The notes under the pieces were generated by a model. That model was not told where the DNA came from. It did not search any database and saw nothing but the letters and a program-made list of their open reading frames with translations. A DNA stretch of 21,045 bases. Source: Candidatus Hydrogenedentota bacterium. Its GTDB lineage: Bacteria > Hydrogenedentota > Hydrogenedentia > Hydrogenedentales > SLHB01. The DNA lies in NCBI GenBank assembly GCA_045863335.1, contig BTVY01000066.1, positions 6,100-27,144 of the forward strand, given 5' to 3'. Below are positions 3,536-20,524 of the stretch, in pieces (positions within the stretch are counted from its first letter, which is position 1; each line of letters opens with the position of its first letter). Position numbers and translations under genes: made by a program.

Positions 3536-4323
3536 GCCCAACCTCACAACCCCATGCCGTCCCCATTGAGGTACACGATCTGACCGTGGCGTATCACCAT
3601 CGCCCCGTGCTTTGGGATATCGACGTGGTTTTTCCGGAAGGGCAACTCATCGCGGTGGTCGGCCCGAACGGCGCAGGCAAGAGCACGCTCATCAAAGCCA
3701 TCATGGGATTGGTGCCGTTGGCCTCCGGAACAGTAAGCATCTTCGGGCAGAATGTCCGCGACGGGCGGCGCTTGATCGCGTACGTGCCGCAACGCGAATC
3801 CGTCGACTGGGACTTCCCGACGACGGCTTTCGATGTGGTTCTCATGGGTCGATATGGGCATTTGCCGCTGTTCGGCCGTCCGCGCAAGCGCGACAAAGAG
3901 ATCGCGCGGCAGAGCCTCGAGAAGGTGGGCATGCTGGACTATGCCAAGCGGCAGATTAGCCAGTTGTCCGGCGGGCAGCAACAGCGCGTATTCCTTGCGC
4001 GGGCGCTGGCACAACAGACGCGCGTGTATCTCATGGACGAACCCTTCGCAGGTGTCGACGCGGCGACCGAGAAAGCCATCGTCGAATTGCTGCGCGAACT
4101 TCGTGAACAGGGCAGCACCGTGATCGTCGTGCATCACGATCTGCAATCCGTGCCGGAGTACTTTGATTCTGTGCTGCTGTTGAACCTGCGCATGGTGGCC
4201 TTCGGAAAGGTGGAATCGACCTTCACGACCGAAAACCTGCACAAGACCTACGGCGGACGCCTGAATCTACTCACGGAAGTGGGGGAGAAGCTGCGCAAGC
4301 AGGAATGGAGCGCCCGCGAATGA
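3532..4323 (+). CDS. troB: Metal ABC transporter ATP-binding protein
   Basis: Walker A GPNGAGKST, Q-loop YVPQ, signature LSGGQQQR, Walker B YLMDEP, H-loop VVHHD; ATGA overlap with troA. Confidence 0.95.
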   Translation: MSPTSQPHAVPIEVHDLTVAYHHRPVLWDIDVVFPEGQLIAVVGPNGAGKSTLIKAIMGLVPLASGTVSIFGQNVRDGRRLIAYVPQRESVDWDFPTTAFDVVLMGRYGHLPLFGRPRKRDKEIARQSLEKVGMLDYAKRQISQLSGGQQQRVFLARALAQQTRVYLMDEPFAGVDAATEKAIVELLRELREQGSTVIVVHHDLQSVPEYFDSVLLLNLRMVAFGKVESTFTTENLHKTYGGRLNLLTEVGEKLRKQEWSARE

Positions 4324-5657
4324 ACGGCGACACATTGACCGTTGCGGCGTCGTTGCCGCCGTGGCTATCGTTCTTCACATTGTCCGACGTGAACGTGCGG
4401 CTGGTGCTCTCCGGATGCATGTTGCTGGGGCTCTGCGCCGGGGTCCTCGGTTGCTACACCTTTCTCCGGAAACGCGCATTGCTCGGCGACGCGTTATCTC
4501 ACGCGGCCTTGCCCGGCGTCTGCGTGGCCTTCATGCTGACCGGCACGAAGAGCCAACTCATCATCCTGCTGGGCGCGACCGTATCGTGCTGGCTCGGTGC
4601 GATTCTGGTCGACCTGATTACGAACCATACCCGGTGCAAAGAGGAAAGTGCCCTCGGCATGGTACTTTCCGTGTTCTTCGCTATCGGCATTCTCCTGCTC
4701 ACGACCATTCAGCACAGCGGGAACGCGGCGCAGGCGGGTCTCGATAAATTTCTCCTGGGCAAAGCGCCCAGCATGCTCGATCGCGACGTGTGGACCCTGA
4801 GCATTCTCAGTCTGATTATTCTGGGTAGCGTGGCGCTTGCGTACAAAGAATTTAAAGTTATCTCCTTCGATCCTGGTTATGCGCGCGCGCTTGGCCTGCG
4901 AGTGCGGTTACTCGAGGTCTTTCTCGCGACCCTCATCGTTCTTGCTGTTGTTGTCGGCATTCAGGCGGTGGGCGTCGTGCTCATGGCCGCCATGCTCGTG
5001 ACGCCGGCCGCGGCCGCGCGGTATTGGACGAACCGCCTGGGCATCATGGCAATTCTTGCGGGGGTGTTCGGCGCGTTGAGCGGCGCGTTGGGCGCCTACA
5101 TCAGCTACCTCGGCCCGGGCATGCCGACAGGTCCCTGGATGGTCATGGCGGTGACGGCGTTTTTCGTCTTTTCGCTTGCGCTCGCGCCACATAAAGGTCT
5201 TGTGGCGCGAATCAGGCAGTCCGTGCGGATTCGCCGGAAGACGGCGCAAGAGAATATTCTTCGCACGCTCTATGTGCTGGGCGAGAAGGAGCACCGCTTC
5301 GACGCGCCCTGTTCGGAGGCCGACTTGTTGAAACACCGCCGCATGCGGTCGTCCGTGTTGCACCACACCCTGGACGCGCTCCAGCAGCAGGGGGTGGTGT
5401 TGGAAACCTCGCAGGGACATATTGCGTTGACCAAGGACGGCGTTAAACGGGCGGCGCGCATCACGCGAATCCACCGCCTATGGGAGTTGTATCTCACGCG
5501 CAAGGTGGAGATCGCGCCCGACCACGTACACGACGACGCCGAGGAGATCGAGCACATCATCACGCCCGAGTTGGAAGCGCGGCTCATGGCGGCGCTGGAC
5601 AATCCGGAGGAAGACCCTCATGCGCAACGGATCCCCGGAGTGGAGGGCGCGCGATGA
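4320..5657 (+). CDS. troC: Metal ABC permease (ABC-3) fused to a C-terminal DtxR-like winged-helix/dimerisation domain
   Basis: 'LLGDALSHAALPG', 'SFDPGYA', 'AVGVVLMAAMLVTPAAAA' for the permease; C-terminal 'ENILRTLY...LTKDG..RAARITRIHRLWELYL...VHDDAEEIEH'. ATGA overlap at 4320. Confidence 0.93.
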   Translation: MNGDTLTVAASLPPWLSFFTLSDVNVRLVLSGCMLLGLCAGVLGCYTFLRKRALLGDALSHAALPGVCVAFMLTGTKSQLIILLGATVSCWLGAILVDLITNHTRCKEESALGMVLSVFFAIGILLLTTIQHSGNAAQAGLDKFLLGKAPSMLDRDVWTLSILSLIILGSVALAYKEFKVISFDPGYARALGLRVRLLEVFLATLIVLAVVVGIQAVGVVLMAAMLVTPAAAARYWTNRLGIMAILAGVFGALSGALGAYISYLGPGMPTGPWMVMAVTAFFVFSLALAPHKGLVARIRQSVRIRRKTAQENILRTLYVLGEKEHRFDAPCSEADLLKHRRMRSSVLHHTLDALQQQGVVLETSQGHIALTKDGVKRAARITRIHRLWELYLTRKVEIAPDHVHDDAEEIEHIITPELEARLMAALDNPEEDPHAQRIPGVEGAR

Positions 5658-6547
5658 ATACGGGATTCTGGATTATTGTCGTCGGCGCGCTGGTCGCGGG
5701 TTCCTGCGCGCTCGTAGGGTGTTTTCTGGTGCTGCGGCGTCAGGCCATGATGGGCGATGCCATCAGCCACGCGGTCTTGCCGGGTATCGTTCTGGCGTTC
5801 ATGATCACGGGGAGCCGCAACACGGTCCCTATGGTCATCGGCGCGGGTGTGTTCGGCTTGCTCACCGTGTTCATTACCGGCGTACTCGAACGTCACGGCA
5901 AACTGCAGCCAGACGCTTCGTTGGGCGTAACCTTCACCTGGTTGTTCGCGGTGGGCGTGATCCTGGTTTCCGCATTTGCCGGTCATGTCGACCTCGACGC
6001 GGAATGCGTGCTCTACGGGGAGATTGAATACACGCCGCTGTATACCTGGACCTTCGCCGGACACGACATGGGACCCCGCGCCGCGTGGATCATGGGCGCA
6101 GCCGCGATTGCGAATGCGTTGTTCGTCGTGCTCGGGTACAAGCAGCTCAAGCTCTGCGCCTTCGACTCGGCCCTTGCCACGGCCGTCGGGATCAATGTCG
6201 CAGTCTGGCATTACCTTCTCATGGGTTTCGTATCCCTGACCACGGTCGCCGCATTCGAGAGCGTCGGCGCGATCCTCGTCGTCGCGTTGCTGATCGTGCC
6301 GCCGAACACCGCGTATTTGCTCACGGACCGGCTCTCACGAATGCTGGTAATTGCCGTGTTACTTGGCATCGCTAGCGCGATTGGGGGATACTGGCTGGCC
6401 AAGGCGATTGACAGCTCGACGTCCGCTGCGATCGCGGTCGTCGCGGGAATCTTCTTTGCCCTTGCTGCCCTGTTCTCACCATCGCATGGGGTAGTTCCAA
6501 GATATATCCGGCAGCGCCGAGTACCATTGGAGACCAGGGCATTATGA
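5654..6547 (+). CDS. troD: Metal ABC permease (ABC-3), second subunit
   Basis: 'MMGDAISHAVLPG', 'HVDLDAECVLYGEI', 'AFESVGAILVVALLIVP'; ATG 5654 overlaps the previous stop, with GGAGG upstream. Confidence 0.93.
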   Translation: MNTGFWIIVVGALVAGSCALVGCFLVLRRQAMMGDAISHAVLPGIVLAFMITGSRNTVPMVIGAGVFGLLTVFITGVLERHGKLQPDASLGVTFTWLFAVGVILVSAFAGHVDLDAECVLYGEIEYTPLYTWTFAGHDMGPRAAWIMGAAAIANALFVVLGYKQLKLCAFDSALATAVGINVAVWHYLLMGFVSLTTVAAFESVGAILVVALLIVPPNTAYLLTDRLSRMLVIAVLLGIASAIGGYWLAKAIDSSTSAAIAVVAGIFFALAALFSPSHGVVPRYIRQRRVPLETRAL

Positions 6548-6574
6548 GTCTGAAGTCTGTAGTCTTTATTCTGT
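6547..6574. repeat. Heptamer array AGTCTNN x4 (left end of the four-helix-bundle cassette)
   Basis: AGTCTGA-AGTCTGT-AGTCTTT-ATTCTGT, beginning on the last base of the troD stop codon. Confidence 0.8.
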
Positions 6575-6631
6575 ATGTAAGAGGGGCGCGGTCAGTAGCG
6601 TCATAAGCTACTTTTTCGGACGGCTGCGGGT

Positions 6632-6945
6632 TCAGAAAGAGCGAATCAGGGCAGACAACACTTTGCTCGTCTGGCAGCACTGGTCGTTTAACGTCTCGTA
6701 GGCTCTGGGTGATATGTGCATGAGCCGATGGGCAAGACTAAGTTGATACTCCACTTCCCGCGCGGAACCGTATGCAATTTCCAGAAAACGGACGAAATCT
6801 GGTTCCGATTCGCGTGCGCACCCCTCCGCAATTGAGACGATAGGCCAAATAGCTCCTCGCGAGGAAAGCTGCGTGTTACTTGGTAAACGTCCAGGGCAAG
6901 TTGATCCGCCAAGTCGAAGGCCCGGAGTTTGCGATGGTCCCGCAT
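6632..6945 (-). pseudogene. Four-helix-bundle protein (23S rRNA-IVP/Avd-like family), frameshifted by an internal deletion
   Basis: N-half '[41 protein letters not shown]' in one frame; C-half '[37 protein letters not shown]...' in another. The family's usual ~8-residue 'AAxSxxxN' segment is missing at ~6823-6832. Alternative start 6960. Confidence 0.88.
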
Positions 6946-7069
6946 CGGGAGCACACCCATAGATATCAGAGTCATCTATCACGAAAGCGATCTTATACTG
7001 GCAGTGGTTCTACAAACAATATCGTTCCAGCCTCACTTGTGCAGATGATTCGACGGTGCGAAGAGTCTT

Positions 7070-7102
7070 GGACTCCAGACTAAAGACTCCAGACTAAAGA
7101 CC
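7070..7102. repeat. Heptamer array AGACTNN x~5 (right end of the cassette, inverted relative to 6547-6574)
   Basis: GGACTCC-AGACTAA-AGACTCC-AGACTAA-AGACC; AGACT is the reverse complement of AGTCT. Confidence 0.85.
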
Positions 7103-7106
7103 ATTC

Positions 7107-7135
7107 TTGACTCTTCGCGCCTCCCTCGCCATAAT
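7107..7135 (+). promoter_or_regulatory. Sigma70-type promoter of the protease operon
   Basis: TTGACT (7107-7112), 17-bp spacer, CATAAT (7130-7135). Confidence 0.7.
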
Positions 7136-7290
7136 GATTCCGGTGTGCCAGATCGCTGCAAACGAACGTTTTATGGTTACGGGCTGCCCACCGAACGAAT
7201 CGGGACAGGCCCGCCTCCCCATGGACTGGCAAGCGTCGCACGCACCTGTTGGTGTTAGATAACCCTCACCCAACCCACAAGGATGCTCCC

Positions 7291-9357
7291 ATGAAGTTTC
7301 GACCGTACCGGACGGCGCTACGCCTACCCGTGATTTGTGTGTTACTGCTGCTCGCCACTTCTCCCGTGATGGCTCAGGACGTCCCGGACTCGGTCCGGTC
7401 GGCGGTGGACGTGGCCATCGCGAAGGTGAAACCGGCACTCGTGCGCATTGCGGTGGTCTGGACGGACTACCGGGACGGGCGCGAGACGAAGTACGAGGCC
7501 ACAGGCAGTGGCACGATCATCACAGGCGAGGGTCACGTGGTCACCAACCATCACGTGGCGGGCCACGCCACGCGCATGTTTTGCACCCTCTCTACCCGGG
7601 AGGTGATCGAGGCCGAATTGGTCGGCACCGATCCTCAGACGGATATCGCGGTGATCAAGCTGAAGTCGGATGGGTCGCGCATTTTCCCGACGGCGTCGTT
7701 CGGTGATTCCGACGCCATGCGGGTGGGCGACTATGTGTTGGCGATGGGGAGCCCCATGGCGCTCTCGCAGTCGGTGACGCTCGGCGTAATCAGCAACACC
7801 GAACTCGTCATGCCGGGCGGCATGGGACGCTTCGGCGCCTTTACCCTTGACGGCGAAGACGTGGGTTCTCTGGTTCGCTGGATTGGACATGACGCGGCCA
7901 TCTACGGCGGCAACTCCGGCGGTCCCCTGGTAAACCTTCGCGGTCAGATAGTCGGAGTAAACGAAATTCGCATCGGACTCGGCGGCGCGATCCCCGGCAA
8001 CCTCGCGCGCAACGTCGCGAATCAAATCATCGATCGTGGTGAAGTATCGCGCGCGTGGCTTGGGCTCTCCGTACAACCGCAATTGCGTTCCGCTGATGTC
8101 CGGCGCGGCGTGCTCGTACGCGATGCTCTGACCGATTCGCCGGCCGCCCGCGCCGGCTTTGAGTCGGGCGACTTGCTCATCCGGCTGGGTGGCCAGGAAG
8201 TCAGCGTTCGTTTTGAAGAGCAATTGCCCGAGTTCAACGCGTTGATCGCCGGGTTGAAGATCGGCGAGCCCATCGAAGCCGTGGTACTGCGCGACGGAAA
8301 AGAAGTCACGCTGAATGTTACCCCCGAGCGGTACGAGAAGGTGGAGCCGAAGGAGCAGGAGTTTAAGCAGTGGGGGATTACTGGGCGCGACATTTCCTTC
8401 GTCAACGCGAAAGAAATGCAGCGCGACACGACCGACGGCGTATATGTGACGACCATGGGTCCCGGCGGTCCCGCGGGTGAAGCGAAGCCGCCGATCAGCC
8501 GGGGCGATGTCATCGTCTCCGTGAACGGCGAGAAGGTCACCGACGTCGCAGGACTGCGCGATATCACGGAGCGTCTGACGGAAGGCCAGACGGAACCGAC
8601 GCCGGTGCTGGTCGAGTTCGAACGGAAGGCTTCGAAGTTTGTGACGGTCGTGAAAGTCGGAATCAAGGAACCGCCCGATCCCGCCATGGAAGTGCAAAAG
8701 GCGTGGCTCCCCGTGAGTACGCAGGTGATTACGCGCGACATGGCCGAACAACTCGGCCAGCCGGACCTCACGGGCCATCGCGTGATCCAGGTGTACCCCG
8801 GAACGACCGCCGAAGCGGCCGGGCTTCAGGTCGGCGACTTGATCTACGCGGTGGATGGCGAGCCTATGCAGGCGACGCGTCCCGAAGACTACGAAGAACT
8901 GGAGACCTGGATTCGTCAGTATAAGATCGGCACGGTCGCAGAACTTGGTGTCGTCCGCAATGGCGAGAAAAAGACTATATCGGTCGAATTGACCACGACG
9001 CCGAGGCTGAGCCGGGAGATGCAGTCGTTCGAAGATCTCAACTTCGAGTTCACCGCCCGGAATATCACGTTTCTCGATAAGGTCAACGAAAAGTGGGACC
9101 TCGACAAGACGGGCGTACTCGTCACAAAAGTGGAGCCCGGCGGATGGGCGGCGCTCGGTGGCCTGGACGTGAGCGACTTGATTATCAGTATCGACGGGGT
9201 GTCTATCCCGGATGTGGAGGCCCTCCAAGCCAAGATGAAGGGCATCACCGACGAGGAAGTCGAAAGTGTGGTGTTTCTTGTAGAGCGCGGCATTCATCGC
9301 GCGTTTCTCGAGTTTGAACCCGAATGGGACGCCGCGGTGTCTCAAGGAAAGGAGTAG
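7291..9357 (+). CDS. HtrA/DegP-like periplasmic serine protease with four PDZ domains
   Basis: Signal peptide; triad motifs 'VTNHHV', 'TDIAV', 'GGNSGGPL'; four PDZ-like blocks ('SPAARAGFESGD', 'GPAGEAKPPISRGD', 'TTAEAAGLQVGD', 'GWAALGGLDVSD'). ATG 7291 follows AAGGA. Confidence 0.92.
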   Translation: MKFRPYRTALRLPVICVLLLLATSPVMAQDVPDSVRSAVDVAIAKVKPALVRIAVVWTDYRDGRETKYEATGSGTIITGEGHVVTNHHVAGHATRMFCTLSTREVIEAELVGTDPQTDIAVIKLKSDGSRIFPTASFGDSDAMRVGDYVLAMGSPMALSQSVTLGVISNTELVMPGGMGRFGAFTLDGEDVGSLVRWIGHDAAIYGGNSGGPLVNLRGQIVGVNEIRIGLGGAIPGNLARNVANQIIDRGEVSRAWLGLSVQPQLRSADVRRGVLVRDALTDSPAARAGFESGDLLIRLGGQEVSVRFEEQLPEFNALIAGLKIGEPIEAVVLRDGKEVTLNVTPERYEKVEPKEQEFKQWGITGRDISFVNAKEMQRDTTDGVYVTTMGPGGPAGEAKPPISRGDVIVSVNGEKVTDVAGLRDITERLTEGQTEPTPVLVEFERKASKFVTVVKVGIKEPPDPAMEVQKAWLPVSTQVITRDMAEQLGQPDLTGHRVIQVYPGTTAEAAGLQVGDLIYAVDGEPMQATRPEDYEELETWIRQYKIGTVAELGVVRNGEKKTISVELTTTPRLSREMQSFEDLNFEFTARNITFLDKVNEKWDLDKTGVLVTKVEPGGWAALGGLDVSDLIISIDGVSIPDVEALQAKMKGITDEEVESVVFLVERGIHRAFLEFEPEWDAAVSQGKE

Positions 9358-20484: not shown

Positions 20485-20524
20485 GAACATCCCCCTTGAT
20501 CCCCCTTCAAAGGGGTGCAGTTCT
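20485..20524. repeat. CCCCCTT/AAGGGG element arm
   Basis: GAACATCCCCCTTGATCCCCCTTCAAAGGGGTGCAGTTCT; the first 24 nt are identical to 2392-2415. Confidence 0.92.

Follow-up and report, generated by a model that had tools for sequence, protein, structure and literature searches.

What is the segment of DNA that separates a metal transporter gene from the promoter of a protease gene, and why is it framed by short tandem repeats that are inverted relative to each other? The question arises from a stretch of 21,045 nucleotides of Candidatus Hydrogenedentota bacterium (assembly GCA_045863335.1, contig BTVY01000066.1, positions 6,100 to 27,144), referred to here as the window. Its segment 6547-7104 consists of an antisense copy of a TIGR02436 four-helix-bundle (4HB) gene between two inverted arrays of heptamers, the arms. 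We regard the segment as probably a decaying copy of a recurrent compact insert, which combines the gene for a 4HB protein of intervening sequences (IVSs) with complementary, clade-specific repeat arms and lies outside ribosomal RNA (rRNA). A first-pass annotation, made from the sequence alone, had singled out the segment as a candidate mobile cassette lacking a transposase, and this overall interpretation is supported as far as sequence comparison reaches.

The locus exists in several allelic forms. In G003, a congener with 91% identity over 2.6 kb, the same segment has an intact open reading frame (ORF) and a left arm of 4-5 units. In G005, another congener, the ORF is gone (~6641-7023 is absent), and what remains is a shortened left arm (~2 units), the trailer, part of the leader, and a right arm that is one unit longer. 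A single locus thus presents three states, being intact in G003, broken in the window, and reduced to a hairpin with no gene in G005. Two further relatives have an empty site at the junction of the troD-like permease gene and the protease gene, where it had been proposed to look for one. In G001, which belongs to the same genus (75% identity), the troD stop codon is followed by 67 bp and the conserved htrA promoter, and in G015, from another genus of the family, by ~150 bp and the same promoter. As both sites have neither arrays nor a 4HB gene, the arms arrived with the gene. The comparison shows that the package was inserted in the lineage of the three sampled congeners, into the spacer that separates the troD stop codon from the htrA promoter. 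The htrA promoter is conserved in G001, G002, G004, and G015, and the gene upstream of it differs in G002 and G004.

Other cassettes of the same genome have allelic counterparts as well. The one on contig C24 is ~440 bp long and situated between convergent genes, and in G001 and G002 only 36-38 bp separate the matched flanks. The cassettes on contigs C62 and C6 are common to G003. At these two sites G005 has unrelated ORFs of ~180 and ~340 codons (L154, G005:C254:1142-1730; L144, G005:C406:317-1391) between flanks that are 88-93% identical, so that the sites turn over whole genes by replacement, not by plain insertion. No target-site duplication is visible at the empty sites, where flank identity is only 75-77% (G001 and G002) or the relative belongs to another genus (G015), and where the spacers are unalignable. 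Gene and arms form one unit, which genomes gain and lose and which can decay through lesions or loss of its ORF; its arm repeat is specific to the clade and its polarity is fixed. The first-pass annotation had described a unit that moves, or is looped out as an RNA or single-stranded DNA stem. Gain, loss, and replacement are seen between genomes, and on this basis the unit may actively move; it may also be looped out, as the predicted stem suggests. Apart from the cassettes, the C24 site of G004 (L139, G004:C21:42917-44131) holds 1.2 kb with a gene-less (TCGTAC)5.5/(CGAGTA)5.5 hairpin and two REP-like palindromes, which makes the C24 site a hot spot of repeat insertion between convergent genes.

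The window copy of the gene is broken. Because its TIGR02436 match is split over two frames, with profile positions 4-36 in ORF 6688-6975 (28.1 bits) and 42-107 in ORF 6632-6982 (63.9 bits), it is classified as a pseudogene. Both pieces pass the curated cut-off of 24 bits, which places the gene in the family, and the copy has no uninterrupted frame of about 115-125 codons. Relative to G003, a 34-bp deletion (34 gap columns) within 6821-6833, between direct repeats CCCTCC(R)CAAT, shifts the frame. Furthermore, a TGA stands where G003 has AGA, eight codons ahead of the ancestral stop. At 6634 the window has A, whereas G003 and contigs of runs X3, X4, and X5 have T, so that their minus strand reads AGA in place of TGA. 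Two contigs (X4 record 19 and X5 record 22) span the deletion point ungapped, and the deletion is hence present in other metagenome samples. As contigs of other runs carry the deletion and three runs read AGA at the stop, the lesions are natural alleles, not assembly errors. The window copy is unable to supply its own protein. The gene had been assigned to the right strand and family beforehand; that it is broken, by the deletion and the premature stop, had not been stated outright. The intact G003 orthologue has 123 amino acids starting with MRDHRKL and matches TIGR02436 with 125.8 bits over profile positions 4-108. Relatives in PDB are 2gsc (E 5.6e-23) and 2rld, each with five chains.

The combination of gene and arms is recurrent. 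TIGR02436 is found at eight places of the own genome, all among short tandem arrays, and a clear inverted pair surrounds the gene at six of them, each with its own unit; the places on contigs C29 and C25 have more complex layouts. Arms were scored by local alignment of the left flank with the reverse-complemented right flank, the control flanks being 220 nt. The window locus scores 16.0. When 3000 random intervals of 321 bp were drawn from the genome, 4 scored at least 16, and so did five of seven evaluable 4HB places, C79 being excluded for its position at a contig end. C25 (score 11) and C29 (score 12.5) have longer genes and a different layout. In an order-level survey, 29 of 41 genomes have a TIGR02436 match, and 21 of the 30 loci returned have an inverted-repeat score of at least 14, three of the remainder being cut by contig ends; the flanks in this survey were 300 nt versus 220 nt in the random control, so these figures are not strictly comparable. 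We then searched across phyla, with one genome per species and an alignment of the five closest proteins as query, and the returned set represents this clade alone. A broad alignment of 16 4HB sequences was dropped as a query, being too diverse. The search yielded 80 loci, whose proteins are 55-69% identical to the G003 protein, in Planctomycetota, Verrucomicrobiota, Hydrogenedentes, Desulfobacterota, Bacteroidota, Nitrospira, Lentisphaerae, Acidobacteriota, Chloroflexota, and other phyla. The records include Rubripirellula obstinata, Adhaeretor mobilis HG15A2, Novipirellula sp. SH528, Stieleria sedimenti, and Pelagicoccus mobilis. Scores of at least 14 are reached by 60 of the 80 loci, and by 56 of the 74 with full flanks. 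The eleven Y1 transposase genes of the genome, taken as a second small-gene family for control, have no inverted array arms (0/11). Homologous genes had been expected to be flanked by inverted arrays more often than random intervals, and they are, by a wide margin, in the own genome, in the order, and across phyla.

A separate set of longer 4HB genes carries a TIGR04258 "suffix domain" (L132:271-945 on C30; L131:299-880 on C29; G000:C25:54200-54700), and a period-9/10 array is located inside their reading frame. The array is between the bundle and the suffix (e.g. GVSISSISSISSIP), and one arm is thereby translated as a linker.

The repeat unit of the window clade is AG(G/A/T)C(T/C)(G/T)N, with the core A-G-n-C-T-n-n. 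Units of other 4HB clades, read by eye, are GAATTAN/AATTGAC, GGATTGC-like, GGGTNT, AGGGAG (period 8), and TCG... (period 6). Among the order relatives, the motif AG[GAT]CY[GT] is present at least twice on both sides and in the right orientation at four of five clade members versus none of 28 loci of other clades. The same test across phyla is positive at 42 of 75 evaluable loci; at least one side has the motif at 65, and the orientation is wrong at 8. Thus the unit co-varies with the protein clade, as had been suggested for checking. We then inspected the unit position by position. Of the 80 loci, 24 are without an array at the threshold and 11 have other periods, which leaves 45 period-7 upstream consensus units. 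Specifically, position 1 is A in 43 of them, position 2 is G in 44, position 4 is C in 41, and position 5 is T in 34, and positions 3, 6, and 7 are at the level of a rotation control made with random heptamers. Because the conservation is position-specific and extends across phyla at 31-45% protein divergence, it argues for a constraint on the unit beyond common descent.

The arms also have a polarity and a conserved geometry. On the sense strand, G exceeds C in the 5′ arm at 25 of 26 loci of one set and at 56 of 60 loci of another. The 5′ arm ends at most 20 nt before the start codon at 29 of the 60 loci, and often with AGG, GGA, or GAG (43 of 60), and the downstream arm begins at most 25 nt past the match at 41 of 60. 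As the arms adjoin the ORF so closely, there is little room for a private promoter. The upstream neighbour has the same direction as the gene at 52 loci versus 17, with 11 undetermined, according to a crude ORF proxy. The median arm length is 30 nt (interquartile range 27-34), and in the own genome it is ~31-35 nt regardless of whether the period is 6, 7, 9, or 10.

A stem of ~20-30 bp, made by complementary ends that surround an S23p ORF, is a feature of rRNA IVSs, and the window segment has such ends. Its arms are inverted as had been claimed, with 26 nt (6548-6573 and 7076-7101) being 85% complementary, and several other registers also pair. Since folding the whole segment is uninformative for an RNA of 596 nt, we used the arm-arm duplex as the test. 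Its predicted energy is -34.5 kcal/mol for the plus strand and -32.9 kcal/mol for the minus strand, versus -15.7 +/- 3.3 kcal/mol for shuffled arms, none of 500 shuffles reaching the observed value. The long-range stem is present in the minus-strand minimum free energy (MFE) fold.

These features can be assembled into a mechanism modelled on the rRNA IVSs. In any transcript crossing the insert, the arms (26 nt at 85% here, usually ~30 nt) would pair into a stem. RNase III, whose gene is present in the genome, would cut this stem as it does in ORF-bearing 23S rRNA IVSs, and the insert would be clipped out of, or insulated from, the host transcripts. Such clipping or insulation would make the insert harmless in transcribed DNA and tolerated almost anywhere. 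The pentameric 4HB protein would bind the clade-specific repeat units as RNA or DNA, and this binding would explain why the core of the unit is fixed in spite of only 55-69% protein identity. Host recombination or hairpin-processing enzymes are candidates for placing a copy at a new site. The processing of the RNA stem is inferred by analogy, and the 4HB protein probably recognizes its own repeats.

The closest known counterpart is the IVS of Coxiella burnetii 23S rRNA in helix 45. Its terminal stem of 28 bp is cut by RNase III, tandem heptamers (GACAGAT) lie just upstream of the S23p ORF in numbers that differ from strain to strain, this ORF is in decay, and an S23p homologue is a pentameric toroid (PMC4990558). 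ORF-bearing IVSs also occur in Leptospira, Brucella, and Xanthomonas, according to work cited in the same source (PMC4990558). The likeness to the window segment thus includes an S23p family protein in the loop, complementary termini as stem, tandem heptamers upstream, ORF decay, and the absence of an encoded mobility enzyme. The window copy differs in its location, which is not a 23S rRNA gene (helix 9, 25, or 45) but the spacer that follows a transporter gene and precedes the promoter of a protease gene, with the 4HB gene antisense to both. Its arms are composed wholly of tandem units, the unit is specific to the clade, and the genome has many gene-less hairpins. Cutting by RNase III, demonstrated for the IVS, is for the window segment inferred.

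Three other kinds of element share some of these properties. RAYT/REPIN systems consist of a single-copy gene flanked by its own inverted repeats and of gene-less doublets across the genome, the type of repeat following the gene clade. The inverted repeats, the population of gene-less doublets, and the match of repeat and clade are all paralleled here; however, the window gene encodes a 4HB protein and not a Y1/HUH transposase, and the repeats are tandem arrays instead of palindromic REPs. Miniature inverted-repeat transposable elements (MITEs) are likewise short, with inverted ends, no transposase inside, and many copies; the ends in question differ from theirs in being microsatellite-like, with unit and period (6-10 nt) varying between families, and no target-site duplication is readable. 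We know of no cognate transposase for array-armed cassettes. Dispersed heptamer repeats are familiar from cyanobacteria as short tandemly repeated repetitive (STRR) sequences. For Geobacter metallireducens, 49 elements made of four GGACCGG units and class-3 sites of five MTYCTGA units are described; these heptanucleotide arrays have 4-5 units, are "mostly found in pairs", and were read as regulator sites or RNA elements (PMC2700814). Dispersed paired heptamers are common to both cases, whereas the text of that paper has no link to a 4HB gene ("four-helix" occurs 0 times; PMC2700814).

Arrays are abundant beyond the cassettes. The own genome has 1100 arrays of period 5-12. Same-unit array pairs within 3 kb are inverted in 102 cases versus direct in 29, and 80 of the 102 inverted pairs are at most 219 bp apart with no gene inside. 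The pairing rule (at most one mismatch between the consensus units called by Tandem Repeats Finder, TRF) missed the window locus, and 102 is hence a lower bound. The arms of such hairpins co-vary down to deviant units, which are AAGCACG/CGTGCTT in one copy and AATCTTG/CAAGATT in another. Gene-less hairpins are at least partly leftovers of cassettes, with the G005 allele as a direct example.

Several observations weigh against the segment being a decaying copy of a mobile, RNA-processed insert. Clear arms are absent in 20 of the 80 clade relatives and in 9 of the 30 order-level loci. Co-variation of unit and clade is also expected from common descent of gene and arms, and only the position-specific conservation points to constraint. 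The window locus itself is not typical: a gene antisense to both neighbours is the exception (5 of the 59 loci at which both neighbours could be called), and the 125-nt leader is atypical. Replacement at C62 and C6 fits ordinary recombination between homologous flanks as well as transposition. In the plus-strand MFE fold of the whole segment, a local hairpin at the right arm replaces the long-range stem; the local hairpin at 7055-7121 folds at -28.5 kcal/mol (plus) and -34.8 kcal/mol (minus). Whole-segment folds are no steadier than those of shuffled sequences (z 0.13 for minus, -0.50 for plus), a comparison that is uninformative at 596 nt. Arm mismatches at 26 loci comprise 15 sense-compatible G-U, 25 antisense-compatible, and 52 other, with no wobble bias on either strand; accordingly nothing favours selection of the stem at the RNA over the DNA level. 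Contigs of the RNA-library run X3 span 6200-7500, and contigs reveal neither transcription, strand, nor ends. Finally, arrays of the window clade are present at ~29 other places though the sole cognate gene is broken, which means that the arrays need no protein to persist.

The gene-less hairpins suggest an explanation along the lines of RAYT/REPIN, in which a single-copy 4HB gene acts in trans to disperse or maintain hairpins of the same unit, and the cassette is the "master" copy. The excess of inverted over direct pairs, the close spacing of the gene-less ones, and the co-variation of their arms agree with it. In addition, for almost all hairpin families the genome contains a 4HB gene whose unit matches: ATCGGT/CGATAC with C79, TATGGAC with C30, ATAGGAC with C29, ACACGGAC with C25, CGGATT types with C62, GAATTA with C6, and AGNCTGG with the window locus. 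We nevertheless consider this unlikely. No catalytic activity of the 4HB fold is known to us, arrays of the AGNCTGG family outlast their dead cognate gene, a gene-less hairpin can form by internal deletion in place as in G005, and part of the period-6 hairpins is carried inside a larger dispersed repeat. Less probable still is that the arrays are intergenic hairpins of the host with a regulatory or structural role (terminators, insulators, or regulator sites) where 4HB genes merely land. Most inverted array pairs hold no gene, the arms are kept in all three congeners while the gene decays, the segment is placed exactly between the end of an operon and a promoter, and paired arrays of G. metallireducens were proposed as regulator sites (PMC2700814). 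This explanation, however, leaves the empty sites unaccounted for, where arrays and gene are missing together so that the arms arrive with the gene; moreover, unit and protein clade go together across phyla, the polarity of the arms depends on the orientation of the gene, and the arms have no T-run signature of a terminator.

Two further explanations have little in their favour. Avd is a small, basic, pentameric 4HB protein that binds nucleic acid and serves diversity-generating retroelements (DGRs), and the segment might be the remnant of a DGR or another retro-mobile unit whose 4HB protein was an Avd-like accessory of a reverse transcriptase. The relation to Avd put forward in the first-pass annotation exists, in that the intact orthologue matches the Avd model NF033474 (E 2.5e-4), and it is weak, with 21.3 bits far under the cut-off of 80. 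The genome (99.4% complete) has no match to RVT_1 (PF00078), and the locus has no template/variable repeat pair, only arrays. We rejected the DGR link on the grounds of this score and the missing RVT_1, and regard a retroelement origin as very improbable. That the arms are microsatellites which arose by chance in a spacer richer in AT, or that they result from faulty assembly, is hardly credible. Both arrays are short by TRF (2.7 and 3.6 heptamer units), but the random-interval and duplex shuffle controls speak against chance, and the same segment is present in two other genomes and in contigs of independent runs. A link to Y1/RAYT transposases was tried and rejected, as the 11 Y1_Tnp genes have REP-like palindromes and none has inverted arrays.

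The favoured reading, a decaying copy of a recurrent insert of gene and arms, bears on two puzzles. To our knowledge, few unexplained small genes are as common in bacteria as those of TIGR02436/PF05635, and dispersed heptamer arrays have been noted for decades with no owner assigned. The two may belong to one package related to the rRNA IVSs. Our literature search, which covered full texts and had subscription journals largely outside its reach, found the layout of gene plus arms described only for rRNA inserts. If the package is real, the nature and spread of IVS elements and their ORF become directly testable. For annotation, it accounts for the occurrence of such genes as strain-specific inserts directly downstream of stop codons and ahead of promoters, and short "microsatellites" around TIGR02436 genes can be flagged as part of the unit. 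A bolder version, which we put forward tentatively and hold to be rather less likely than its negation, is that S23p proteins are sequence-specific readers of their own arm repeat. Cassettes and gene-less hairpins together would then constitute a transposase-less system like RAYT/REPIN across phyla, with the rRNA IVS as a special case. A very common "hypothetical" family would thereby gain a function, and the unexplained dispersed heptamer arrays of several phyla would have an origin.

The window features and the inverted pairs of the own genome are listed in the table below.

Table. Features of the insert locus in the window, and inverted array pairs around 4HB genes on contigs of the same genome (a dot marks features without strand).
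Feature	Position	Strand	Description
troD-like permease stop codon TGA	6545-6547	+	last base A = first base of left array; TGAGTCT reads as first repeat unit
Left arm	6547-6574	.	AGTCTGA AGTCTGT AGTCTTT ATTCTGT; 3′ of 4HB gene in gene sense
Trailer	6575-6631	-	between present stop codon and left arm; contains the final 8 codons of the ancestral ORF and its stop (reverse complement of 6608-6610), by alignment with intact G003 copy
4HB pseudogene (TIGR02436/PF05635, S23p family)	6632-6945	-	ATG 6945-6943; premature TGA 6634-6632
Leader, right arm to start codon	6946-7070	-	125 nt; mostly deleted in G005
13-nt inverted repeat GGTGCGAAGAGTC/GACTCTTCGCGCC	7055-7121	.	92%; encloses right arm, overlaps htrA -35 box; competing local hairpin; not conserved in G005
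Right arm	7070-7104	.	GGACTCC AGACTAA AGACTCC AGACTAA AGACCAT; 5′ of gene in gene sense
htrA promoter TTGACT-17-CATAAT	7107-7135	+	-35 = 7107-7112; 10/12 consensus matches; right boundary, outside insert
Inverted pair	C24		GGGGTAT/CCATACC
Inverted pair	C6		GAATTAA/TAATTCA
Inverted pair	C62		TGCGGAC/CGCAATC
Inverted pair	C66		window locus
Inverted pair	C79		ATCGGT/CGATAC, period 6; at contig end
Inverted pair	C30		period 9

The host spacer is ~740 bp long and extends from the stop of the metal ABC permease gene (troD-like, ORF 5480-6547; profile match NF040927/AztB-type) to the ORF of a Do/HtrA-family protease (to 9357; TIGR02037, E 8.7e-110). The GC content is 0.50-0.55 over 6400-7199 versus 0.595-0.66 in the flanks on both sides, in agreement with the AT-rich segment first noticed. 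The left array, of the AGTCTNN type, does begin on the last base of the troD stop, as had been read from the sequence; TRF calls it at 6547-6565 with period 7 and 2.7 copies. The core of the right array is a perfect 14-mer GACTCCAGACTAAA with 2.2 copies at 7071-7101, the (G/A)GACTNN heptamers extend to 7104, and the array ends 2-4 bp before the TTGACT of htrA, which accords with the described stop just short of the -35 box. On the sense strand of the gene the right arm reads GGAGTCT/TTAGTCT, the G-rich version. Its 31-mer has identical copies at G000:C1:9745-9775 and near-identical ones at C21:8560-8588, and the right arm is the break point of all metagenome contigs. The segment encodes no transposase, as claimed. 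No consensus sigma-70 match is found on the minus strand as a promoter of the 4HB gene, where a weak TTGTTT-16-TATAAG is readable by eye only, and Rfam gives no matches over 6300-7400 at E up to 1.

That the arms may provide the stop codon of the host gene is no more than suggested by three counts. ORFs end near arm starts on 40 of 182 arm sides versus 314 of 4000 random positions. The stops near arms are TAG in 20 cases, TGA in 14, and TAA in 6, the genome-wide share of TAG being 33% as estimated crudely from ORFs. The two loci that have empty-site counterparts (n = 2) end in a stop codon other than the one in the relatives; for troD it is TAA in G001 and TAG in G015 versus TGA here.

Among the gene-less hairpins, the period-6 set was considered as one MITE family. 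Of 26 such hairpins, 22 were listed, the remaining 4 being too close to the end of a contig. The single family was rejected, as only 8 of the 22 share loop and flank and the others are unrelated outside the arms. The eight (ATCGGT/CGATAC; C16:42877, C22:22668, C46:51644, C28:30690, C34:77494, C58:15135, C68:2376, and C7:6295) are part of a larger dispersed repeat, because the loop and >100 bp of flank on each side are common to them. The eleven Y1 (IS200/RAYT-type) transposase genes (C16:55716, C62:205, C7:164598, C42:12304, and seven more) are flanked by palindromic REP-like sequences, and the REP-like palindrome tgtagcgcccggcttccacgccgggcgg is also present within array-hairpin loops, e.g. 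at G000:C93:2510-2758.

The window has a few more repeats. In its first intergenic region, positions 1-81 are composed of (GGATTGG) x11.9 and 555-611 of degenerate (TTTCGGA) x8.4. These two arrays are direct, not inverted, and enclose no 4HB gene; the array at 555-611 resembles the right arm of the abundant AAATCCG/TTTCGGA hairpin family, and its partner is absent. A 10-mer doublet ATCCCCCTTG x1.9 occurs at 2396-2414, 2532-2550, and 20489-20507, the inverted copy AAGGGGGATC being 118 bp off and the third copy 18 kb further. The strings CCCCCCTTGAATCGTCA, similar to this doublet, flank arrays on contig C1. Upstream of troD, at 4305-5657, the permease is fused to a DtxR/MntR-type metal-repressor domain (residues ~313-447), which brings transporter and regulator together in one protein.

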